A stretch of 64,000 bases of DNA from SAR202 cluster bacterium. Its GTDB lineage: Bacteria; Chloroflexota; Dehalococcoidia; Lucifugimonadales; Australimonadaceae. The notes under the pieces are model-generated. The model was not told where the DNA came from. It did no database searches and saw only the letters and a program-made list of their open reading frames with translations. The DNA lies in assembly GCA_016872415.1 (NCBI GenBank), contig VGZX01000002.1, positions 19,447-83,446 of the forward strand. Reading direction: 5' to 3'. The first letter of the stretch is position 1, and each line of letters starts with the position of its first letter. The position numbers were made by a program, and so were the translations under genes. This document shows, one piece after another, positions 5,300-58,063 of this stretch.

Positions 5300-6136
5300 A
5301 TGGATGCCATCCGCGCCGAGCGCAAGCACGTCACCGTCAATGGCCTGCGGCTGTCCTATCTCGACTGGGGCGGCGCTGGGCGGCCGTGGCTGCTGTGCCT
5401 GCACGGCTTCACGGAGCAGGCGCACATCTTCGATGAGTTCGCCGAGGCCGTCTCGCCGCGCCACCGCGTGCTGTCGCTCGACTTCCGAGGCCACGGCGAG
5501 AGCCAGTGGGCGCCGGACGGCTACACGCGCGACAAATACCTGGCCGACGTGACCGCGTTCGTCGGCGCGCTCGGCATCGACGAGGCAACCATCGTCGGGC
5601 TGTCGCTGGGCGGTATCGTGGGCATGCTGCACGCGGCCGCGCAGCCGCGCGGGGTCAAGCGGCTCGTGCTGGCGGACATCGGCCCCGAGACGGGCGATGG
5701 CGCCACGAGGCAGCGCGCCGGCCGCCCACCGCGGCCGATGGGGTTCGCCTCGTTCGACGACGCGTTCGCCTGGTCGCGCTCGGGCAGCTGGTTTTCAGGC
5801 CCGGACGAGCAGGTGCGGAAGGACCTCGCGAACAAGCTCCGCCGGCGCGACGACGGCAAGTGGGTCTGGAAGCTCGACCCTGCCCTCTTCGAGCCGCCGG
5901 CGCGGCCCGACCCCATCACCACGGAGCGGCTGTGGCGGGCGTTCGAAGCCATCGCCTGCCCCATCATGCTCGTGCGCGGGAAGGATAGCGCGTTCGTTGA
6001 CGATGGCATTCTCGCCAGGATGCGCCGGGCGCAGCCGTCCCTGCGCCACGCCGACGTGGAGCGCGCGGCGCACATCGTGACGGTCGACAACCCGCGGGGC
6101 TTCATCGCGGCGACCAGGGAGTTCTTGGCGGCCTGA
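5300..6136 (+). CDS. Alpha/beta-fold hydrolase
   Basis: HGF oxyanion motif (LLCLHGFTEQ), a nucleophile elbow GLSLGG, and a late acid/His region (AAHIVTVDNP). GGAGG lies 7 nt upstream of the ATG. Confidence 0.8.
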   Translation: MDAIRAERKHVTVNGLRLSYLDWGGAGRPWLLCLHGFTEQAHIFDEFAEAVSPRHRVLSLDFRGHGESQWAPDGYTRDKYLADVTAFVGALGIDEATIVGLSLGGIVGMLHAAAQPRGVKRLVLADIGPETGDGATRQRAGRPPRPMGFASFDDAFAWSRSGSWFSGPDEQVRKDLANKLRRRDDGKWVWKLDPALFEPPARPDPITTERLWRAFEAIACPIMLVRGKDSAFVDDGILARMRRAQPSLRHADVERAAHIVTVDNPRGFIAATREFLAA

Positions 6137-6214
6137 CCGGCGGCGCGGCGGGAGGGGGACGGCCCGGCAAAGCCGCTGCCCTACCCGCGCCCGCGTCCAC
6201 CGGTCGGAAGACGG

Positions 6215-7135
6215 CTATCGTACCTTTTGGTTCTTCAGGTCGAACACGTCCTTCGCCAGCGTCGCCATCATCTGAAATGCGCGCTCGTGGTCCTTCGTCC
6301 CCTCGATGTCGGGCCAGTTGTACCAGTCGATCACGATGTACGGCACGCCGAGCGCCTCCAGGCCCTTCACGTCCTCGCGGACCTGCTCCAGCGTGCCGGT
6401 GCCCATGCGGCGGTCGGCGGCGGTGATCGGCTCCTTCGTGATGTGCATGCCGATGCGGACGTTCACCTGCGGCACGGGCCGCCCGGCGGCCTCGGCTTCG
6501 GCCTTCAGCAACGGGAGCCACTGGTCGCGCAGGCTGGCGAGCGACACGCGGTTGGGGTGCCACGCATCGCCGTACTTCACCGCGCGCTTCACGGAGCCTT
6601 CGCTGTTGCCGCCGACCCAAATGGGCGGGTGCGGCTTTTGGCGCGTCGCGATGGCGGAGATGCGGTCGAACTTGATGTAGCCACCGTGGTGCGTGACCTC
6701 GCCGCTGCCCGTCCACAGCGCCTTCATCGCGGCCAGCATGTCGCTGGACCAGGGACCCCGCTTGTTGTGCGGCACGCCCAGCGTCGCGAACTCGTCGGCG
6801 GCGTTGCCGATGCCCACGCCGAAGATGAAGCGCCCGTTGCTGAGCTGGTCGAGGTTCGCCACGTGGCGCGCCAAGAGTATCGGGTGCCGGTAGGGCAACA
6901 CGATGATGGTGGTGCCGAGGTCGACGCGCTTGGTCTGTCCGGCGAGCCACGAGAGCGTGATGAGAGCGTCGTAGAACGGCTCCGGGTACCGCTCGCGCAC
7001 CGATGGCGTGATCGCGACGTGGTCGGAGATGAAGATGCCGTGGTAGCCGATGCCCTCGACGACCTGCCCCCAGCGGGCGACGGAGTCGGGCGTGATGCCG
7101 GGACCGAAATTCAAGAGGTTGACGCCGACCTTCAC
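6215..7135 (-). CDS. Luciferase-like (LLM class) F420-dependent oxidoreductase
   Basis: VKVGVNLLNFGP ... FISDHV ... LGTTIIVLPYRHPILLARHVANLDQLSNGRFIFGVGIG is the typical LLM/TIGR03619-like pattern. I place the start at GTG 7135 (GGTGGGGG 7 nt upstream), not at the ORF-track start 7249. Confidence 0.8.
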   Translation of the reverse strand: MKVGVNLLNFGPGITPDSVARWGQVVEGIGYHGIFISDHVAITPSVRERYPEPFYDALITLSWLAGQTKRVDLGTTIIVLPYRHPILLARHVANLDQLSNGRFIFGVGIGNAADEFATLGVPHNKRGPWSSDMLAAMKALWTGSGEVTHHGGYIKFDRISAIATRQKPHPPIWVGGNSEGSVKRAVKYGDAWHPNRVSLASLRDQWLPLLKAEAEAAGRPVPQVNVRIGMHITKEPITAADRRMGTGTLEQVREDVKGLEALGVPYIVIDWYNWPDIEGTKDHERAFQMMATLAKDVFDLKNQKVR

Positions 7136-7207
7136 GTATGAGCCCCCACCGAGTGTAGTGTGCCGGTAGTATACGGGGTGAGCGCCCCCACCATCGCCCT
7201 TCGAGCC

Positions 7208-7921
7208 ATGATGACGTTCGACGAAGTGATCACGTATTTCGAGGCGCACGCCAAGCCGCGCAACCGCGAAGGCATGGCGCGGTACGGCATCGACGTCTCC
7301 AACACCTACGGCCTCAACACTCCCGACTTACGGGGGCTGAAGCGGCGCATCCAGCGCGATCACGCCCTGGCGCTCCGGCTGTGGGAGCATGGCTCGCGGG
7401 ACGCGCGCCTGCTCGCGGCGATGATCGCCGACCCAATGCAACTGTCCGCCGCGCAAGCAGACAGTTGGGTGGCCGGCCTCACCAGTTGGGACGTTTGCGA
7501 TGGCCTTTGCTCCGAGTTGCTGGCGCGCATGCCCCGCGCGTCGGCAAAGGCGCTGGAATGGGCGGCCGACGACCGCGAATTCTTCAAGCGCGCGGGCTTC
7601 ACGGTGATGGCGCGCATCGCCGTCAGCGACCGGGCCGCGCCGGACGAGGCTTTCGAGCCGTTCCTGGCGGCGGTGCTGGCCCACGGCGCCGACAGCAGCA
7701 ACTTCGTGCGTAAGGCCGTGAGCTGGGCGCTACACCAGATCGGCAAGCGCGACGAGCATCTGCGCCGGCGGTCGCTAGCGACGCCGCGCTCGCTGCTCGC
7801 GAGCGGCGAACGCGAGGGCCGGTGGGCCGCGATGGATGCCATCCGCGAGCTGGAGGGCGAGGCGGTCATTCGGCGGTCGGGCGCGGCTACAGCACGGCGC
7901 GCGCGATCGTCCAAAGGTTGA
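7208..7921 (+). CDS. DNA alkylation repair (AlkD-like HEAT-repeat) protein
   Basis: ...HAKPRNREGMARYGIDVSNTYGLNTPDLRGLKRRI...LWEHGSRDARLLAAMIADP...FVRKAVSWALHQIGK matches the DNA_alkylation repeat family pattern. The start is taken at the ATGATG at 7208. Confidence 0.7.
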   Translation: MMTFDEVITYFEAHAKPRNREGMARYGIDVSNTYGLNTPDLRGLKRRIQRDHALALRLWEHGSRDARLLAAMIADPMQLSAAQADSWVAGLTSWDVCDGLCSELLARMPRASAKALEWAADDREFFKRAGFTVMARIAVSDRAAPDEAFEPFLAAVLAHGADSSNFVRKAVSWALHQIGKRDEHLRRRSLATPRSLLASGEREGRWAAMDAIRELEGEAVIRRSGAATARRARSSKG

Positions 7922-8717
7922 GGCCGACGAGGGCGGCGCCGACCATTACGCCGATGACGCGGGCGGGCATGTGCCTGGCGAGGTAGGCGCCCAACGGGGC
8001 CGTGAGGAAGCTGCCCGCCATGAGGGCGACCGGCAGCGCCCAGCCGAAGCCTGACCACTTGATTTGCGAGATGACGGTGGCGGCCGTCGCGAACGCCACG
8101 AAGAACTCTACGAAGTTCACGGTGCCAATGGCGTGGCGCGGGTGCCCGCCCTTGAGCAGGATCACCGACGAGGTGGCGATGGGGCCGAACGCGCCGCTCA
8201 TGCCGTTGAGCACGCCGGCGGAAAAGCCCACGACACCCAGCTTCGCGCTGTCGGGCGCGTCGGCGATCGTGAGGCGAATGCGCGCGAGCCGGCCCGGCGC
8301 GAGGGCGACGTCGTCGCTGCCGCCGGCCACTGGCGGCACGGTCGCCGCGCCGGTGAGGAAGCGCCGGAGGATGAAAAATCCGACTCCCAACAGCAGCACC
8401 GGCACCAAGAAGCGGGACGCTTCCACGGGCAGGTGCGTGAGGACGAGACCGGCCAGCACGCCGCCGGCGACGGCGGGGACGGCCAGCGGCAGCACCCAGG
8501 AGCGCTCGACATTGCCGAACCGCAAGTGCGACAGGGCCGATGCCATGCCGCTGCCGACCTTGGCAAGGTTGACCGTGGCGACGACCACCGCCGGCGTGAC
8601 GCCGCCCGCGAGCATGATGGAGCCGGAGAAGGCGCCGAAGCCCATGCCGGCAACGGTGTCGAGAAATTGGCCGAGCGCGCCGGCGCCGATCGCTATCAGT
8701 ATCACCCACCAGACCAT
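7887..8717 (-). CDS. TauE/SafE-family anion (sulfite) exporter
   Basis: A polytopic membrane protein. It starts MVWWVILIAIGAGALGQFLDTVAGMGFGAF... and has a second repeat ...GVLNGMSGAFGPIATSSVILLKGG. I place the start at ATG 8717. Confidence 0.8.
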   Translation of the reverse strand: MVWWVILIAIGAGALGQFLDTVAGMGFGAFSGSIMLAGGVTPAVVVATVNLAKVGSGMASALSHLRFGNVERSWVLPLAVPAVAGGVLAGLVLTHLPVEASRFLVPVLLLGVGFFILRRFLTGAATVPPVAGGSDDVALAPGRLARIRLTIADAPDSAKLGVVGFSAGVLNGMSGAFGPIATSSVILLKGGHPRHAIGTVNFVEFFVAFATAATVISQIKWSGFGWALPVALMAGSFLTAPLGAYLARHMPARVIGVMVGAALVGLNLWTIARAVL

Positions 8718-8755
8718 CGCATCCACCTTCCCATCGGACCCCCGCGACGCGCGGG

Positions 8756-8792
8756 CAAACGAAAAGCCCCCGCGGACTGCGCCGGGGGGCTT
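8756..8792 (-). terminator. Putative intrinsic terminator downstream of the deacetylase gene
   Basis: On the minus strand the hairpin AAGCCCCC...GGGGGCTT (arms at 8764-8771 and 8785-8792) is followed by TTTTCGTTTG. Confidence 0.4.
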
Positions 8793-8932
8793 GCTGATCG
8801 ACATTCGTGGTTTCGCGCTAACGCCTACAACCGCACGTACTCAGCCATCCCCTCCGGGGCACAGCAGTCACACATGCAACAACAGGTGTTGGCGCGCATC
8901 GCGACCTATTATGCCAGCGTGGGCGGAATCCG

Positions 8933-10066
8933 TCAACCGGTGGTGAGGCCGTGCGATGGGAAAACGAGCCTCCGCAGCTCCTCGACCTGCTGGCGGGCGA
9001 ACCGCCGCGTCTGGTCCACGATGTCCGGGTCGATGTCGGCGTCGGCGTCGCGTAAGCGCTCGCTGGTCAGGAAGGCGTCCGCGCCGGCCGGCAGCTCGTC
9101 GGGCCATTCGCGGCCAAGCATCACGCCGTAGGCCATGGTCCAGCAGCGAGCGACGACGTCAAGGTCGTAGCCGCCGCCGCCGAACGCGAGCCACGGCAGG
9201 CCCAGGCCCGCGAAGTAACGCACGAGGTCGATGTAGTCCCGGCTCGTGAGCGCCAGGTGCGAGAGCGGGTCGCGGCCGTGCGCGTCGACGCCGAGTTGGG
9301 TCGCGATCACGTCCGGCGCGAATGCGCGGAGCAGGGGCGGCACCACGGCGTCGAACGCCTCGCGGTACACGGCGTCGCCGGTGTAGGGGAACAACGGCAG
9401 GTTCACCGAGAAGCCCCTACCCGCGCCCTCGCCAAGCTCGGCGACCTCGCCGGTGCCGGGGAAGAGGTAGCGCCCCGACTCATGCAGGGAGATGGTGAGC
9501 ACATGAGGGTCATCGTAGTAGGCGGCTTGCACGCCGTCGCCGTGGTGGGCGTCGATGTCGATGTAGGCCACGCGCAGCCCGCGCCGGCGCAACACGTTGA
9601 TGGCGACGACGGCGTCGTTGAATATGCAGAAGCCCGACGCGCGCCCGGCGGCGGCATGGTGCAGCCCGCCGGCCGGCGCGAATGCGACGCGCGCAAACTT
9701 GTCGGCGACCAGCTCGGCCGCGCGCACCGAGGCGCCGCACGCCAGCAGCGCGGCCTCGTACATGCCGGGATAGACGGGATTGTCGCCGAATTTGGCGAAC
9801 CCATGGCGCTCCGCATCCCTGGTGGATGCACCGTTGCTGTAGGCGCGCACGGCCTCAACGTAATCGCGCTCGTGGAACGACAACAGCTCTTCCTCGGTGG
9901 CGGGCCGAGGCTGGATGAGCCGCGACGCGCCGCCGTCGAACGCGCCGTATGCCTTGGCGAGGGCATAGGTGTATTGGAGCCGCACGGGCCGCATGGGGTG
10001 GCCTTCGCGCAAGACGTGTTGAGACATCCGCGGGTCATAGACGTAGGCGGCGAACTGGTCAGTCAC
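8933..10066 (-). CDS. Histone deacetylase-family protein (AcuC/acetoin utilization-like)
   Basis: Class I HDAC motifs: GGLHHA, FCIFND and DIDAHHGDGVQAAY. Confidence 0.85.
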   Translation of the reverse strand: MTDQFAAYVYDPRMSQHVLREGHPMRPVRLQYTYALAKAYGAFDGGASRLIQPRPATEEELLSFHERDYVEAVRAYSNGASTRDAERHGFAKFGDNPVYPGMYEAALLACGASVRAAELVADKFARVAFAPAGGLHHAAAGRASGFCIFNDAVVAINVLRRRGLRVAYIDIDAHHGDGVQAAYYDDPHVLTISLHESGRYLFPGTGEVAELGEGAGRGFSVNLPLFPYTGDAVYREAFDAVVPPLLRAFAPDVIATQLGVDAHGRDPLSHLALTSRDYIDLVRYFAGLGLPWLAFGGGGYDLDVVARCWTMAYGVMLGREWPDELPAGADAFLTSERLRDADADIDPDIVDQTRRFARQQVEELRRLVFPSHGLTTG

Positions 10067-51866: not shown

Positions 51867-53429
51867 CTAGTCGCCCTTCATAAGCGCGTCGCCGACCTCG
51901 TTGATCGCGACCGACTCGATGGCGATCTCCGGGGCGTGGACGATCTCGTCGGCGTTCCAAACCACCGTCGGCTTCTTCTCGCGCCCAATGCCGATGATGC
52001 CGTTCAATATGCGGTGCGTGTTGTCGTTCAGGCGCACCGCGTTGGGCTGCAGCGGCTTGCCGAGGCGGCCGTCTTTGATGAGGTAGGAATCGCCGATGAC
52101 GGTGCAGGTGAAGTCACCCTGCGTGATGCCGTTGATGGGGTACGTGTACCAGATGCGGCCGATGTAGATGCCGTCGCCGACGCGGCGCAACAGCTCGTCG
52201 GTCGGCACCTCCTCCGTTCCTTCCACCATCACGTTCGTCGCGGCGATGCCCGGTGGCTGCGTGAAGTGCCGTCCGCCGCCCATGCCGAAGCGGAAGCCGT
52301 TGCGCGGCGCGATGGCCGCCACGTAAAGGTTGGGATCGACTCCCAGCTTCCTCGCGCCCTCGGGATCGTGCAGCGCGCGCTGGTGCTCGTACCAGTTGGC
52401 GAGCAGCCCCACCAGGCGGCCATGCCGGATGAGGTCGGTGCGACCTGTGGGCAGGCCTTCGTCGGTGACCCCCTTGCTCGCCGCGAGGCCGCGCAGCGCG
52501 CCGTGGTCGTACATGCTGAGCGTGCGCGACGCGATCTGCTTGCCAAGCTTGCCCTGGAACGGCGAGGCCCATGCGTGGAACAGCCCCAGGCTGAGCCCCG
52601 GCAGCACGAGGTTGTTCAGGATGTCGGTCACCGGTTGCGGCCCCAGCACCACCCGGTATTCACCCTCCGGTATCCGCACTCCATCGGCGGCGCGAATCGC
52701 GTTGCGGGCGGCATCGTCGCCGGGGCCGTCGCCGAAGCCCGCAAGCGTGCCGCCCACGTGCCAGCCGGTGCCCTTGGTGTTGCGCCGCTCGACCATCGAC
52801 GTGGCGACGGACGAGATGAGGGCCGTCTCGTCGCCGATCACGGCGCCCTCGACGGTGTTGCCCACCGCAACGCGCTCTTGAATCACCATCATGTCGCCGG
52901 TCAGAATCAGCCCCAGGTCCTTCACGGTATCGGGCGACCTCGACCACTCCAGCAACGCCTCGGACGACTGGAATACCTCCAACGCCCCATCGACGACGCG
53001 CCAGCCGAGATCGACCAGGCCGGCGTCGTCCAGTTTCATCAGGGCAGGGTCGTGATATTTGATGAGCGAGCGTCGCGGCTTCGCGCCCATGCGCGGCAGC
53101 GACACGAACTCAGGGTCGGGCACCGCGCCGCGGCGGGCCTTGTCAAGCGCTTGCGCGACGCCGGCCAGGGTCATGTCGCTCGGCTCGCTGCCGAACCCCT
53201 GCTTGATGCCGCCGCCGTCGCGGAACACGACGCGTAGCCCCACGCCGAACGACTCGTTCGACTTTGGCTCCTCGACGCCGTTGGATGGAATGTGCGACGT
53301 GAACGCCAGCCGCGTGATGAGGTTGGCGTTCGCGGCCATGAAGACCTCCGCCTCTTGCACGTCCGGCACGGTCCGCAGATAGGCGATGGCGTCGGCCACG
53401 GCTCGCTTCAGTTGAGGCACGGTAAGCAT
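51867..53429 (-). CDS. TldE/PmbA-type partner of the TldD metalloprotease (no HExxxH)
   Basis: 520 aa with TldD/PmbA-family features (...GVGLRV..., a C-terminal beta-rich region). I found no HExxxH motif. The ATG overlaps the rmuC stop (TAATG). Confidence 0.75.
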   Translation of the reverse strand: MLTVPQLKRAVADAIAYLRTVPDVQEAEVFMAANANLITRLAFTSHIPSNGVEEPKSNESFGVGLRVVFRDGGGIKQGFGSEPSDMTLAGVAQALDKARRGAVPDPEFVSLPRMGAKPRRSLIKYHDPALMKLDDAGLVDLGWRVVDGALEVFQSSEALLEWSRSPDTVKDLGLILTGDMMVIQERVAVGNTVEGAVIGDETALISSVATSMVERRNTKGTGWHVGGTLAGFGDGPGDDAARNAIRAADGVRIPEGEYRVVLGPQPVTDILNNLVLPGLSLGLFHAWASPFQGKLGKQIASRTLSMYDHGALRGLAASKGVTDEGLPTGRTDLIRHGRLVGLLANWYEHQRALHDPEGARKLGVDPNLYVAAIAPRNGFRFGMGGGRHFTQPPGIAATNVMVEGTEEVPTDELLRRVGDGIYIGRIWYTYPINGITQGDFTCTVIGDSYLIKDGRLGKPLQPNAVRLNDNTHRILNGIIGIGREKKPTVVWNADEIVHAPEIAIESVAINEVGDALMKGD

Positions 53430-54559
53430 TAGCTATCCTTCTCGTCCGATATGTCCGCCGCGACGAGCGCCAGGTCGGGCTCCTCGCCGGGCGCGACGTC
53501 GATGCCGCGTTGCTGGCGCAGCGCCTCGATCCGGTCGAGCGGGCGTTGGAGCCGACGCTTGCGCGGACCCACCGCTTCGTCGAAGGCCTTTTGCGTCGAC
53601 GCCAGCCGCCTGCCGATCAGCTCCAGGCTGCCGTTGAATTTGGCCCACTCCTCGTTGAAGCGGCCGATCAGCGCGACGATCTGCTCCGACTCCCGTTGCA
53701 GGGCAAAGGTGTCGACCGCCTGCCGCACGACGGCGAGCACGGCGAACAGTGTCATCGGCGAGCAGCAGATCACGCGGCTCCGCAGCGCCGCATCGAGCAC
53801 GCCGGTGTCCTGCTCGTGGATGAACGCGTACAGCGACTCGTTCGGAATGAACAGCAGCACGTAGTCAACCGTGCCACCCTCGGGATCGATGTATTCGCGC
53901 CCCGTGACCTCGCGCACTCGCGCGCGCACGTCGCGCAGAAACGCCGCCTTCCGCGCCTCGCGATCGCCGTCGGACTGGGCGGCGAGGTAGCCGAGGTAGT
54001 TGTCCAGCGGAAACTTCACGTCCATGTTCATGCGGAGCCCGCCGGGCAGCAGGAACACGAAATCAGGACGCGAGCCGGCGCCCTCGACCACCGCCTGCTT
54101 GCGGTAGTTCACGCCCTCGACGAACCCGATGAGCCGCAGGATGTCGTCGGCCATGCGCTCGCCCCACTGGCCGCGAGCGCGCGTGCTGCTCAACGCCTCG
54201 CGCAGCGTCGAAGTGGTGGTGGTGAGCGCGGCGGTCTGCTCGCCGACGAGCTTCAGCTGCGTACTCAATGCGCTGAACTGGCCCGCCCGCTCCTTCTCGA
54301 CGCCCTGCACGAAGGTCGTGACCTGTTGCAGTGTCGCGCCCATCTGCTCAAGCCGCTGGTCGATGAGTGCTTTCTTGCCGGTGAGGTCCGACGCGGCTGC
54401 CTCGGCCTGGCGGGCGAAGCGTTGCTCGGCGAGCGTCAGCAGCTGCTCCGAGGCGCGGGCGAGGTCGGCTGACTTGGAGCCCTGCCGACGCAGCGCCATC
54501 GCCAGCGCGATGGCGAGCAGCCCCACCGCGACCGCGAGCACGACGACGGCGGCTTCCAT
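53429..54559 (-). CDS. rmuC: DNA recombination protein RmuC (PD-(D/E)xK-like nuclease domain)
   Basis: An N-terminal TM and a coiled coil are followed by ...SRPDFVFLLPGGLRMNMDVKFPL...VDYVLLFIPNESLYAF...VICCSPMTLFAVLAVVRQ, which is colinear with E. coli RmuC. Confidence 0.85.
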   Translation of the reverse strand: MEAAVVVLAVAVGLLAIALAMALRRQGSKSADLARASEQLLTLAEQRFARQAEAAASDLTGKKALIDQRLEQMGATLQQVTTFVQGVEKERAGQFSALSTQLKLVGEQTAALTTTTSTLREALSSTRARGQWGERMADDILRLIGFVEGVNYRKQAVVEGAGSRPDFVFLLPGGLRMNMDVKFPLDNYLGYLAAQSDGDREARKAAFLRDVRARVREVTGREYIDPEGGTVDYVLLFIPNESLYAFIHEQDTGVLDAALRSRVICCSPMTLFAVLAVVRQAVDTFALQRESEQIVALIGRFNEEWAKFNGSLELIGRRLASTQKAFDEAVGPRKRRLQRPLDRIEALRQQRGIDVAPGEEPDLALVAADISDEKDS

Positions 54560-54561
54560 TA
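54552..54561. repeat. Left copy of the 10-bp direct repeat GCTTCCATTA flanking the foreign ORF
   Basis: An exact 10/10 match with 56156-56165. It spans the rmuC start codon and the foreign ORF stop codon. Confidence 0.9.
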
Positions 54562-56163
54562 GATGCCCTTCTTCGATCCGGGTGACGGTAAATGCATTTC
54601 GAATAAAGCAGTAAGAAAACCTTCCCTACCAATAACGAAGAATGTCCTGTAGATATTCCAGACACCCTTCGATGGCACATCTGTCTCGTGCTCTGAGATG
54701 TTGCGCTTGCTAAGAAGTTCTGTTTCTAACCATCGCAGCGGCCCATCTCGAAATTGGAGCACCTTTGCATTCGTTAGTCCTTTCTTGCGTAGCAGCTCAC
54801 CAAATCTGGAGGTTCGAAAAAGAAATGCCCAGTCTGCCAGTGTAGCTTTGGCCGGTAGCGATGCTCTAACAGGAGGCTGCTTGGATCGCCTAGTTTTTAG
54901 ATGTTCCGTGAGTGCTCTGTCTGATAATAGAGAACCAAAGAACAGATCAAAGATTGCTTCTGTTACCGTCTGCAGGCAGTTGAGAGCCATTGCCGCCGGT
55001 GTCGGTTCTTCAGCAAATACAATGTCGTCTGCAGCGATAAAGCGATCGCGAGCTCGCTGCGGGAATAGATTCCACATCTGGTCGTTGACAAAATAGCGTC
55101 TCAGCCGCTGTTCTGCTGCTCGTTTCGCTGGCCCAGGCTCTTGAGAATTTAGTACTTCCTTTAGGTATGGGTAAATATTCTCTCTTGAGAGTAAAGACTT
55201 ATGCTTAGCCACTGCGGCTGCAATTTCCAGTTGCCAATTCGGATCTATATCGTCTTCGTTCGCTTCCCTCATGGCGTCTAGGAAATCCAGAACCTTGCGG
55301 CCCCCTGCCTCATCCGTAAGTGCCCTATCTTCAACCAATTCGTAGCCTTGCCACAGATAGCTAAACGCCATGTCCCCGGCATTGAGGGGCTCGTTATTAG
55401 ATGCCAGCGGGTCAGTTGTGGACTCGTCCCAATCAATCAATGACGGTATGAATTTGATTGGCCATCGATACTTCACAGTTTGGCCGTAAGCGTCAATATC
55501 CATGAAGCTTGTGAACCGCACAAGAGTCGGTAACGAAAAGCTAGGTGGGTGCTCTGCTTCGTGCTCATAGTGACTGAAGTCATATCTAAAAGCCGGGTCC
55601 CACACTTCCATTGTCTTCCGTATCGCAGCAGTTGCATGCTCTAGACTACCAACGTGATCTTTGTTGTATCGCCTGAGATCCAGTAGTGCCCAGTGCGCCC
55701 AGCCAGCCAATGCGTGGGCACCCAATTCATTCACAGGGAGCTCATGGGTAAGGTCGTTACCTCCCCACTCAGGCTGCAATATCGCTAGCCCAGAGAGAAC
55801 TCGCTCCCAAGCGGGCTCGCACCTTTCGGTTGGTTGGTAGTAATCGATGTGCATAAAGCACTGGCCGATGACGCATGCTAAATGGGCATTGGCAAGTAAG
55901 CGCTCAGGAGAAGGCTTCTCATCCGGTTGCCGTCTGCTAGCGTGCTCCTCAAGCTGAAAAATATGATTAGCTAGCCATTCGTAGTCATCGGTCGAGGGGT
56001 ACGTTCCCTCGTCCGGGCGATGAACGATCCATGCGAGATCGATAGCCTGACTTACAAACTCCGACTCCGATGAACTTTGTTCTCTGTAGAGAGCAATGAA
56101 AGCACGCCCCTCGGATCGATGCTCGCGGCTTGGTGGTAGGTGCGGAATCGGCAATGCTTCCAT
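54559..56163 (-). CDS. Compositionally foreign hypothetical protein (534 aa) with a C-terminal R-N-x3-H (HEPN-like) motif
   Basis: A long uninterrupted ORF in a region far lower in GC than its surroundings. The ATG at 56163 lies 10 nt after the tldD stop (GGGGG in between). Its stop overlaps the rmuC start (TAATG). There is no TM segment or signal peptide. KRNISEH is encoded at 54688-54708. Confidence 0.8.
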   Translation of the reverse strand: MEALPIPHLPPSREHRSEGRAFIALYREQSSSESEFVSQAIDLAWIVHRPDEGTYPSTDDYEWLANHIFQLEEHASRRQPDEKPSPERLLANAHLACVIGQCFMHIDYYQPTERCEPAWERVLSGLAILQPEWGGNDLTHELPVNELGAHALAGWAHWALLDLRRYNKDHVGSLEHATAAIRKTMEVWDPAFRYDFSHYEHEAEHPPSFSLPTLVRFTSFMDIDAYGQTVKYRWPIKFIPSLIDWDESTTDPLASNNEPLNAGDMAFSYLWQGYELVEDRALTDEAGGRKVLDFLDAMREANEDDIDPNWQLEIAAAVAKHKSLLSRENIYPYLKEVLNSQEPGPAKRAAEQRLRRYFVNDQMWNLFPQRARDRFIAADDIVFAEEPTPAAMALNCLQTVTEAIFDLFFGSLLSDRALTEHLKTRRSKQPPVRASLPAKATLADWAFLFRTSRFGELLRKKGLTNAKVLQFRDGPLRWLETELLSKRNISEHETDVPSKGVWNIYRTFFVIGREGFLTALFEMHLPSPGSKKGI

Positions 56164-56165
56164 TA
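56156..56165. repeat. Right copy of the 10-bp direct repeat GCTTCCATTA flanking the foreign ORF
   Basis: An exact 10/10 match with 54552-54561. It spans the foreign ORF start codon. Confidence 0.9.
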
Positions 56166-56173
56166 TGCGCCCC

Positions 56174-57742
56174 CTACGGCCCGACGACGCGCGCGACGCT
56201 GCGCATGGTGGGCCCGCCGTTGCTCATGCGCTTGGCCTGCATGGGCTGGCCCTTGCCGCAGTTAGGAATGGGGTACAGGTGGAAATCGTTCCCGACCCCG
56301 TCGACGCGCATGAAATAGTCCTTGGAGTCCGACATGACGGCTCCATCGCGGTACAGCCGCCCAATCTCGCCGTGGTTGATCTCGTATACCTGCTTCGCGC
56401 TGATGCGGAAGTTCTCGCGCGACTCGGAGATCGACGGTATGCGGTGGCCCTTCACGTAATAGCCGTGGTCGATGTCCTTGAAGAGCTCCTCCGGGGGCGT
56501 GTCGCCGCTGACGAAAAAGGTGTTGGTCATGCGGACGAGCGGCACCATCGACGCGTCGGTCGCGACGTAGCCGCCATTCGCCTCGACACCGGCGATCGCC
56601 GCCGTCTGACGGCTGGTGAGGAACTCCTCCAGCACGCCATCGCGGATGTGCCACACGCGCCGCGCCTTCGTGCCCTCGTGGTCATACGGGAAGTAACCGA
56701 AGCCCTCGATGGACGCATCGGAGACGGCGTTCACCAGCGGCGAGGCGATCCGCTTGCCGACCTGCGACTCGCCGAGGTCGTTCAGCAGCCACGATCGCCC
56801 GGCGTAACCCGCCTCCATCTTGAGCGCGCGGTCCAGCTCGACGGGGTGGCCGACGATCTCGTGCACCAGCAGCGTGTTGTAGTGCGGATCGGTAACGACG
56901 GGCACGGGGCCCTCGCTCGACGGCAGTGGCGGCGCGTCGGCGGTCTCGACGGTGACCTTGGTCAAGTCGAGGGCGAAGTCGCGCAGCGACGGCAACTGGA
57001 TCGAGGCGTGGTCGTAGCCGCGCTGGAGCACCTCCCACCCGCGTTGGTGCCCGCTGAAGTCATAGAGCTCCATCGGCCCCGTTTCGCCGTTCGCCATCAC
57101 GAACACGAACGCCTCCGACTGCGCGAACGTGTGGTCGATGTTGGCGCCCTCGGAGGAGCAGTAGAGGTTGCGGATGAGCACCGACGACGCGCCGATGCCG
57201 TTGTAGCGCACGGTGGCGCTAAAGCCGGCCACCGCCTTCGATATCTTCCCGACTTCGGCCGCGATCGCCCCAAGCGACAGCGACCGAGGGTCGATCTCGA
57301 AGATCGCGGGCACGGTGTCGACGTGGGCCCGTACCGGCGCGAGCCGCGTGTCGTAGAGGTTGTCGGCGAGGCGGCCGAAACGCCCGCGCGTCGCCGCCTT
57401 GCGCGCGGCGGACGCCCGCGCCCGCTCGTGGGCGTGCTTGACGCCCTCGCGGACGATGGCGCTCATGCGGTGGACGTCGGCGGTGCCGAGCGTGCGTCCG
57501 AAGTAGCCTGGCGCCACGGCGCCCCCGGACTCGGCGAGCACGCGGACGCCGAACGACAGGCCGCGCTCCTCCTGTGTGCTCTTTGGCGCGCCGTTCTCGG
57601 CGTAGACGCCGACGCCCTCGCTTGCCTCGACGCGGATGTCGCAGTGGAGCAAGCCGGCGAGACGCTTGGCGTAGCCCTTGGCGATCCGGGCGATCGCCGG
57701 GCGGACGCGCTCGATGACTTCGATTCCAACGTGCTCGGCCAT
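56174..57742 (-). CDS. tldD: TldD-type zinc metalloprotease
   Basis: TldD/PmbA family with the catalytic HExxxH present (VHEIVGHPVE). ATG 57742 is preceded by GGGAGGGG; the ORF-track GTG at 57760 is an alternative start. Confidence 0.85.
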   Translation of the reverse strand: MAEHVGIEVIERVRPAIARIAKGYAKRLAGLLHCDIRVEASEGVGVYAENGAPKSTQEERGLSFGVRVLAESGGAVAPGYFGRTLGTADVHRMSAIVREGVKHAHERARASAARKAATRGRFGRLADNLYDTRLAPVRAHVDTVPAIFEIDPRSLSLGAIAAEVGKISKAVAGFSATVRYNGIGASSVLIRNLYCSSEGANIDHTFAQSEAFVFVMANGETGPMELYDFSGHQRGWEVLQRGYDHASIQLPSLRDFALDLTKVTVETADAPPLPSSEGPVPVVTDPHYNTLLVHEIVGHPVELDRALKMEAGYAGRSWLLNDLGESQVGKRIASPLVNAVSDASIEGFGYFPYDHEGTKARRVWHIRDGVLEEFLTSRQTAAIAGVEANGGYVATDASMVPLVRMTNTFFVSGDTPPEELFKDIDHGYYVKGHRIPSISESRENFRISAKQVYEINHGEIGRLYRDGAVMSDSKDYFMRVDGVGNDFHLYPIPNCGKGQPMQAKRMSNGGPTMRSVARVVGP

Positions 57743-58063
57743 GACCCCTCCCTCGCGCACTCGGTTCAGGTCTCTCCGCCGCTAAGCCCGCGACGCGGCA
57801 TGGCAGCGGGCGATACCGCGACGCGGGAGCGGACTTGCCTTCCGCTCGCGCCGCCTCCAGCCACCGGGCCCTGGCGACCCGCGATTCGCGCGGCGCCCGC
57901 TCCGGGGTATCCCCCAATGCCGAACGAACCTCCGAATCGGGGATCGTCGATCTCCTAAAGCGATGTCACCTCGATGCCGAACTCGATGGCGGTATGCCTA
58001 TCCGAGCAAATCACATCGCGGTCGCTCGTTCAATGCGCTGTTTTTCTGACGGCATCGTGGCCC

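Follow-up and report, generated by a model that had tools for sequence, protein, structure and literature searches.

How does a single gene come to lie, flanked by a short direct repeat, inside a block of housekeeping genes? This question is raised by ORF534, an open reading frame (ORF) in a 64-kb stretch of a metagenome-assembled genome (MAG) of a SAR202 cluster bacterium (Chloroflexota); this stretch is here called the window, and coordinates refer to it unless another locus is named. ORF534 is recorded at NCBI as 'MAG: hypothetical protein FJ318_00935 [SAR202 cluster bacterium]' on a 96,473-bp contig, and it is located on the minus strand in the gene order ilvD, tldD-like, ORF534, rmuC and pmbA-like (Table 1). 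From the analysis described below, it is proposed that ORF534 is, with little doubt, a foreign gene recently inserted in a conserved tldD-rmuC-pmbA operon. The best overall explanation, which we consider reasonably likely, is that a single foreign gene encoding a HEPN-like protein was inserted at a microhomology.

The composition of ORF534 is foreign. The initial annotation of this locus described the ORF as much poorer in GC than its surroundings, and this was borne out by the GC content at third codon positions (GC3), which is 0.501 in ORF534 versus 0.893 in pmbA, 0.894 in rmuC, 0.919 in tldD and 0.933 in ilvD. Likewise, sliding GC drops from 0.66–0.72 outside to 0.47–0.54 within ORF534 and recovers beyond it, so that a discontinuity is present in the GC and codon profile. 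ORF534 is the only extended run of 300-nt windows with less than 0.58 GC in the 64 kb, and the remaining windows below this value are isolated, at approx. 1.6 kb and 28.1 kb. It had also been claimed that the drop coincides with the ORF borders; a likelihood fit with two change points agrees with this at the right edge (54554, support 54542–54589), but the left edge (56101, support 56090–56176) is softer than claimed. The support ranges of both change points take in the copies of the border repeat. The glutamate codons also contrast, with a GAA/GAG usage of 22/24 in ORF534 (22 GAA in 46) versus 3/25 in rmuC (3 in 28).

The second feature is the direct repeat itself. The 10-mer TAATGGAAGC occurs exactly twice in the 64 kb, both times on the minus strand and, as first noticed in the initial annotation, at the two borders of the gene; the expected number is 0.03, and two matches appeared in none of 100 shuffles. 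Given that the 8-mer ATGGAAGC is confined to the same two sites, this start-region word is not a common one in the window. When extended without gaps, the match grows to 14 of 17 bases (GGGCnnnTAATGGAAGC; GGGCATCTAATGGAAGC versus GGGCGCATAATGGAAGC). In mRNA sense, each copy reads as a complete translation-initiation region: a G-rich element that resembles a Shine-Dalgarno (SD) sequence (GGGGG or AAGGG) is separated from the ATG by 6 nt that end in TA, and the ATG is followed by GAAGC. The upstream copy gives ORF534 its SD-like G run, the 6-nt spacer, and the start codon with the 5 nt behind it, in the frame ATG GAA GC; this ATG lies 10 nt past the TAG stop of tldD, the upstream operon neighbour. 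The downstream copy holds the last codons and the TAA of ORF534, the SD-like AAGGG, and the ATG GAA GC of rmuC, so that one base belongs both to the stop of ORF534 and to the start of rmuC. These frames are those originally read through the two copies, and the plain tldD/rmuC junction that was said to result from removing the insert is indeed obtained in silico, since deletion of one copy plus the 1594 bp between the copies yields tldD-TAG-GGGGCGCATA-ATGGAAGCCGCC. The repeat is too specific for chance, and it is probably the footprint of the insertion event.

An operon without the gene, i.e., the empty site that the initial annotation suggested looking for in related genomes, was found among 86 loci fetched from GTDB representative genomes with an RmuC profile. 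One of these loci, in the chromosome of a Dehalococcoidia MAG (OZ252022.1, hereafter L009), carries the same block with nothing between the genes: tldD (5372–6994), a 6-nt spacer (CTGTCC), rmuC (7001–8170) and pmbA (8167–9729). The tldD product of the window is 54.5% identical to that of the gene directly before rmuC in L009, the 3' end of tldD aligns well in DNA between both loci, and the window from which the cassette is deleted is collinear with L009. Because tldD-rmuC-pmbA is uninterrupted in this relative, ORF534 is regarded as inserted in an operon that is otherwise conserved. In other relatives, ilvD is found with a 31-residue ORF and rmuC, without tldD, pmbA or ORF534, and none of the 12 related loci with both ilvD and rmuC contains ORF534. 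Full-length relatives of the protein are equally missing: among 5.8 billion clustered proteins the only full-length match is ORF534 itself (P0001), and an exhaustive search of 1.84 billion representative proteins with HMMER/phmmer returned 14 remote homologs (E values from 3e-8 to 6e-4), all of them matching residues 347–525 only. Taken together, the empty site, the absence of full-length relatives and the un-ameliorated composition are explained economically only by a recent insertion.

Regarding the mechanism, a one-off, microhomology-mediated (illegitimate) insertion between tldD and rmuC that did not require a recombinase is proposed. It could have taken place by double illegitimate recombination, by microhomology-mediated end joining, or by a replicative template switch that re-copied the start region of rmuC. 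After the insertion, two copies of the translation-initiation region of rmuC (SD-like G run, 6-nt spacer, ATG GAA GC) are present, so that ORF534 probably depends on the operon promoter for its transcription and on one of the copies for its translation, while rmuC would keep the other, overlapped by the TAA of ORF534 (TAATG). The absence of a promoter of its own and the translational coupling of rmuC to ORF534 are read from this anatomy and stay putative. A promoter scan was uninformative in this respect, because no sigma-70-like site was detected anywhere in 51.5–60.2 kb and the scan does not discriminate a promoterless ORF534. RNA structures sequestering the start regions were also considered and discarded, as the folds were unremarkable (z of 0.76, 0.41 and -0.62). 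In general, a microhomology-type mechanism seems a better account than a dedicated element, with fair confidence, and transposition or site-specific recombination is probably not the explanation.

Illegitimate recombination during transformation of Acinetobacter baylyi was reportedly studied by de Vries and Wackernagel in 2002, and by Hülter and Wackernagel in 2008. The integration of foreign DNA at microhomologies without a recombinase, by double illegitimate recombination and SPDIR, is a described process (bioRxiv 10.1101/2023.11.22.568220). The event proposed here resembles those of the Acinetobacter type, either double illegitimate, homology-facilitated illegitimate or SPDIR, in that it needs neither a recombinase or transposase nor a specific site, in the short identities found at the joins, and in that any foreign segment can be accepted, also within an operon. 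On the other hand, an identity of 10 nt (14/17) is long for such events, and these do not predict an insert of exactly one ORF that takes its start and stop from the repeat.

Another aspect of the repeat is the source of the 10-mer. The codon GAA is rare in the host (3/28) and common in ORF534 (22/46), so the foreign DNA is as plausible a source of the 10-mer as the host. The initial annotation proposed a short-homology or target-duplicating event; a duplication of host target sequence is not required, given the rarity of GAA in the host. Similarly, its claim that the ORF took over the start context of rmuC stands insofar as ORF534 begins with a copy of this context and overlaps rmuC in TAATG, and not with respect to the host or foreign origin of the 10-mer. 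RmuC relatives start with ME[I/A/V], and residue 3 is Ala here versus Ile in the closest relative (P0003); the difference between MEI and MEA hints that the first rmuC codons may have been rewritten by the insertion. Codon 2 of rmuC (54554–54556) is itself GAA, one of only three among the 28 glutamate codons of the gene. The two origins predict different starts of rmuC in close relatives, ATGGAGATC if GAAGC came with the cassette and ATGGAAGCC if host sequence was duplicated; if one pre-existing copy became two, the empty-site allele should read ...GCGCATAATGGAAGCCGCC... / GGGGCGCATAATGGAAGCCGCCGTC. The first full codon of ORF534 past the repeat, codon 4 (56152–56154), is TTG, a possible start. 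The foreign segment may conceivably run from a native TTG start to the native TAA stop; a start-type codon would be present there by chance in approx. 5% of cases.

Several observations count against the insertion as proposed. The relative that provides the empty site is distant, with 54–63% amino-acid identity, and no RmuC with more than 63% identity exists in the GTDB representative genomes; the closest RmuC, P0003 (78% identical), is encoded on a contig of 1187 bp. The microhomology at the joins is putative, and the 10-mer may be host or foreign DNA, GAA being rare in the host. In addition, random microhomology does not account for an insert that is precise to the gene: with its ATG in one copy and its TAA in the other, the ORF takes up all of the 1594 bp that separate the repeats.

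Dedicated mobile elements were searched for at several levels. The window contains no tRNA and no Rfam match at gathering level, and no Rfam match was obtained in 53000–57500 at E values up to 1. Genes for integrases, transposases or recombinases are absent from the surveyed neighbourhood (41.9–63.8 kb), where the neighbours are housekeeping genes, i.e., thrS, a flavoprotein, a CoA-transferase, an M24 peptidase, ilvD, holA, an MFS transporter and tatC. Neither an attC-like palindrome at the 3' end nor a GTTRRRY core at either border was found. These scans agree with the initial annotation, which had reported no integrase, transposase, tRNA or terminal inverted repeats. A subterminal inverted repeat, TCGATCCG/CGGATCGA, is present, with a core of 8 bp and 80% complementarity over 15 nt (54573–54587 and 56105–56119), and its arms lie 12–26 nt and 37–51 nt inside the repeat copies. 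It is treated as chance because 5.5% of random window pairs equalled or bettered it (p ~0.055), and on this basis terminal inverted repeats were rejected.

With these results, the known classes of elements were discarded one after the other. An integrase-mediated tRNA island lacks both the tRNA in the 64 kb and an integrase among the neighbours, and a self-splicing intron, a retron or another structured RNA element has no Rfam match. Insertion sequences (IS) and transposons would account for a direct repeat of approx. 10 bp flanking the insert, and target-site duplications of the IS4 family measure 9–12 bp; the insert differs from them in that it has no transposase domain and no significant terminal inverted repeats, and is a bare ORF without a start and stop of its own. 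For the same reason, a simple transposition that duplicated 10 bp of target is not plausible, because the mobile unit would be an ORF lacking start, stop, transposase and terminal repeats. Integron gene cassettes are similar to ORF534 as promoterless single-ORF units placed behind resident expression signals; they differ from it by the attC site, the GTTRRRY core and the nearby integrase that are missing here, and by the fact that ORF534 fills the whole unit.

The initial annotation went further and considered the insert an undescribed kind of element. As an alternative to a one-off illegitimate event, ORF534 could be a mobile unit of this sort, a promoterless ORF that carries the repeat and integrates at gene starts resembling its own, by a single crossover or by a site-specific activity encoded by the host; such a unit, if it carried the repeat at the junction of a circular or tandem intermediate, predicts the junction GGGCATCTAATGGAAGCATTGCC / GAAGGGCATCTAATGGAAGCATTGCCGATT. 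Its integration would produce the direct repeats at both borders and connect the gene to the translation signals of the host. The exact size of the insert agrees with this alternative, with 1594 bp between the repeats, the ATG in one copy and the TAA in the other, and in a circular form the SD-like AAGGG of the 3' end (GAAGAAGGGCATCTA) would be located 6 nt ahead of the ATG of the cassette itself. The residue 3 of RmuC, Ala versus the Ile of P0003, is compatible with a cassette that overwrote the first codons, and the homologs of this family occur as single, AT-rich genes in several contexts that are unrelated. The frequency of GAA, typical of the cassette (22/46) and rare in the host (3/28), would point in the same direction, but AT-rich codons close to the start are common in GC-rich genomes, and this weakens the argument. 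More importantly, there is one instance only, and none of the seven homolog loci shows border repeats or a duplicated translation-initiation region, so that the repeat was rejected as a property of the gene family. The unit also lacks an attC-like structure, a GTTRRRY core, a significant inverted repeat, and a recombinase gene in 41.9–63.8 kb.

Copies elsewhere were not detected either: tblastn gave no ORF534 match against plasmids and phages, viral contigs scanned with ORF534 and with alignment A3 gave nothing, and in the JGI metagenomes the junction word GTAGGGGGCGCATAATGGAAGC had 0 hits and the A3 scan no confirmed relative (alignment A2 was too divergent for locus scans). A mobile unit of this kind is therefore an unlikely explanation, and an undescribed element cannot be upheld from a single occurrence with repeat-free homolog loci, when insertion at microhomologies is already described. 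The general mechanism that would go with it, in which translation-initiation regions act as recombination sites for promoterless ORF-only cassettes and the start region is duplicated, is rated as quite improbable because the homolog loci have no border repeats and no second copy is found. In this reading, the cassette would have a start-region copy at its junction and enter at a similar gene start with no recombinase of its own. The same low rating applies to its corollary, that integration of cassettes would keep the resident gene translated together with the incoming defence gene and constitute a general plug-in route for orphan defence genes into housekeeping operons.

It could also be argued that the repeat is no insertion footprint at all, but a coincidence, or the product of convergent selection for an efficient SD-spacer-TAATG-GAA context in a translationally coupled operon, the foreign gene having arrived by an unrelated route. 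The stop of rmuC overlaps the start of pmbA by the same TAATG (53427–53431; the junction is GCTAATGCTT), therefore five of the ten repeated bases could be functionally constrained, and RmuC relatives natively start with Met-Glu. However, the five bases of GAAGC and the TA upstream of the ATG of ORF534, where no gene ends, would still have to match, for which we estimate a chance of ~1e-4, and the match goes on upstream to GGGC at equal spacing; none of these three elements is explained by function. Moreover, ATGGAAGC is found nowhere else in the 64 kb, and the rmuC/pmbA junction shares just TAATG with the repeat. A coincidental or selected origin of the repeat is accordingly doubtful, and the insertion footprint is preferred.

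An error of assembly or binning that joined a low-GC fragment into a SAR202 contig might be suspected, since the source is a MAG and the composition of ORF534 differs sharply from that of its flanks, but this is highly improbable. The independent Logan assembly of SRR7990526 gives a 4105-bp contig (L001) that corresponds to 52139–56243 with 0 mismatches and spans both junctions; because it is identical across them, both junctions exist in a second assembly. Furthermore, the 10–17 nt shared at the joins are too short to mislead k-mer assemblers with k of 21 or more, and a chimera is not expected to make a perfectly framed ORF of 534 codons that uses both copies of the repeat. Finally, an ancestral presence of ORF534 in the tldD-rmuC-pmbA block, followed by its loss from L009 and the other relatives, with a low GC of other than foreign origin, could be defended only from the distance (54–63% amino-acid identity) of the sole empty site. 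This is hardly credible with a GC3 of 0.50 inside an operon of 0.89–0.93, which is not compatible with a long residence, with the lack of an ortholog among the clustered (5.8 billion) and representative (1.84 billion) proteins, and with its absence from all 12 related loci that have ilvD and rmuC.

The product of the inserted gene belongs, by its C-terminal domain, to a rare and undescribed family of 15 members among the 1.84 billion representative proteins. The 14 homologs have between 192 and 679 residues; the shared domain is C-terminal in each of them, and their N-termini are variable. The N-terminal region of ORF534 (residues 1–346) has no relative in any collection searched, and the profile version of the word-indexed protein search found only P0129. 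No Pfam domain was detected in 10 full-length homologs, nor in the 15 C-terminal domains at E values up to 10. In PADLOC-DB 2.0, ORF534 matched 0 families and the homologs gave just two hits, both at chance level. The C-terminal domains of P0124, P0125, P0127 and P0131 weakly match the C-terminal half of NCBIfam NF041917, the 'HP0729 family' (E values from 1e-3 to 6e-2). These four homologs match over the same domain, but their scores of 12–18 bits are far under the 250-bit cut-off, ORF534 itself has no hit, and the NF041917 family has no known function. HP0729 of Helicobacter pylori, an uncharacterised protein, is encoded by one of a set of rapidly evolving genes (PMC3561388).

The conserved domain shows features that recall HEPN ribonucleases. 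R148 and H153 of alignment A2, the equivalents of R487 and H492 in ORF534, are present in each of the sequences (15 of 15), within the motif R-[N/D]-x3-H that reads RNISEH in ORF534; the residue following the arginine is N or D in 14 of the 15, and RR is found in the other. An upstream segment, LN..(Q)..A.E, is nearly invariant and contains the acidic residue E402 (E63 of A2). The full-length AlphaFold2 (AF2) model obtained from the single sequence was unreliable (pLDDT 40.7); with alignment A2, the domain was modelled as entirely helical (pLDDT 84.7, pTM 0.80). In this model, the motif closes a long helix (126–153) that is followed by a loop and another helix (159–170), E63 is in helix 51–75, and helices occupy residues 77–121 before the motif helix. 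HEPN domains have been described as a four-helix core of two alpha-hairpins, with Rx4-6H at the end of helix 3, a polar residue (N, D or H) after the arginine, an acidic residue in helix 2, and an insert between helices 2 and 3 (PMC3710099). The predicted layout of the ORF534 domain is compatible with this description.

The ORF534 domain is like the HEPN RNases RnlA, AbiV, Csm6/Csx1, PrrC and RloC (PMC3710099) in being predicted as all-helical, with an Rx4H motif and N or D after the arginine. Its family shares with them variable N-terminal fusions and restriction or mobile genes as neighbours, and the model would add a motif that ends a long helix, an earlier acidic residue and a helical insert. 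It differs in that it has no significant profile or structure match and no evident partner, either an antitoxin or an MNT gene. From these similarities, it is suggested that ORF534 could be a HEPN-like, metal-independent RNase effector of the defence or abortive-infection type, a proposal to which we give slightly better than even chances, and the orphan helical N-terminus (~340 residues), joined to a C-terminal helical domain of ~180 residues, would then be a sensor or regulator. Membership in HEPN is not established; the motif and the helices fit a HEPN-like RNase and do not prove it.

Against this assignment, ORF534 matched no model of Pfam, NCBIfam, PHROGs or PADLOC, neither the sequence search nor the profile search of the PDB found anything relevant, and no profile match to a described HEPN family was obtained in Pfam or in the PDB profile search. 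With the C-terminal model, Foldseek returned nothing significant (best E values of 0.57 in the PDB and 1.6 in BFVD); the weak tail of this search includes RnlA twice (TM 0.41–0.44), Csm6 twice and Csx1-Crn2 three times. Also unfavourable is that P0127 and P0135, which are orthologs with 47% identity, are encoded directly after polA among housekeeping genes, outside defence islands.

Most of the homologs have restriction, defence or mobile genes as neighbours. P0124 (L093) adjoins a restriction gene of the Eco57I/BsuBI type and Uma2; P0125 (L094) adjoins GmrSD, a DDE transposase and an AAA_15 ATPase; P0126 (L095) sits between two Uma2 genes; and P0128 (L091) is found among IS66, IS21, an integrase, a STAND NTPase and DUF4435. 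The homolog genes have a GC content of 0.47–0.57, which in five of the seven cases is lower than that of the flanks. The genes of P0127 and P0135 (L089, 8001–9587; L092, 8001–9599), from two related metagenomic genomes, begin 29–38 nt downstream of polA and lie upstream of a Lit-family gene, with a GC content of 0.49–0.53 versus 0.63–0.66 in the flanks. The family is thus found twice next to genes of DNA metabolism, polA in these two loci and rmuC in the case of ORF534.

If the microhomology insertion holds, this locus would represent an unusually clean natural case of a single gene that enters a bacterial operon without the machinery of a mobile element, and the incoming gene would be expressed immediately through the copied ribosome-binding and start sequence of its neighbour. 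Illegitimate insertion in itself is already described. The gene belongs to a rare, undescribed family with HEPN-like hallmarks, which is a candidate new HEPN-like defence effector that is cheap to test. This clean but single case of recombinase-free acquisition falls short of demonstrating a new kind of mobile element. If duplication of the start region proved to be recurrent, it would point to a new route of gene-cassette mobility; from a single instance this is speculation.

Table 1. Features of the ORF534 locus, from upstream to downstream in the direction of transcription
Feature	Position	Strand	Properties
tldD-like metallopeptidase gene	56174..57760	-	Pfam PmbA_TldD_3rd 6.7e-38; GC3 0.919
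Upstream repeat copy, GGGCGCA-TAATGGAAGC in mRNA sense	56156..56172	-	exact 10-mer at 56156-56165
ORF534, single gene, very probably foreign by insertion	54559..56163	-	534 residues, begins with ATG; GC 0.505; GC3 0.50
ORF534 N-terminal region, residues 1-346	55126..56163	-	predicted helical; no detectable relative
ORF534 C-terminal conserved helical domain, residues 347-525	54589..55125	-	common to 14 remote homologs
Rx4H codons R487-N-I-S-E-H492, candidate HEPN-type active site	54688..54705	-	invariant R and H
Downstream repeat copy, GGGCATC-TAATGGAAGC	54552..54568	-	exact 10-mer at 54552-54561
rmuC, native	53429..54559	-	Pfam RmuC 1.5e-68; GC3 0.894; start overlaps ORF534 stop (TAATG)
pmbA/tldE-like metallopeptidase gene, last of the tldD-(ORF534)-rmuC-pmbA block	51867..53429	-	Pfam PmbA_TldD_3rd 5.6e-32

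With regard to the resident genes, the RmuC of the window matches the PADLOC model RTasRmuC of the defence-associated reverse transcriptases (DRT; E value 9.5e-24) across its nuclease domain. Because there is no reverse transcriptase nearby, this looks like a similarity at the level of the domain and not like a DRT defence system. No functional link between RmuC and TldD was found in the literature. The rmuC gene is nested between two genes of TldD/PmbA-family peptidases both in the window (51867–57760, minus strand) and in L009 (5372–9729), where rmuC and pmbA overlap by 4 nt, and the tldD-rmuC-pmbA block is common to these two lineages of the Dehalococcoidia.

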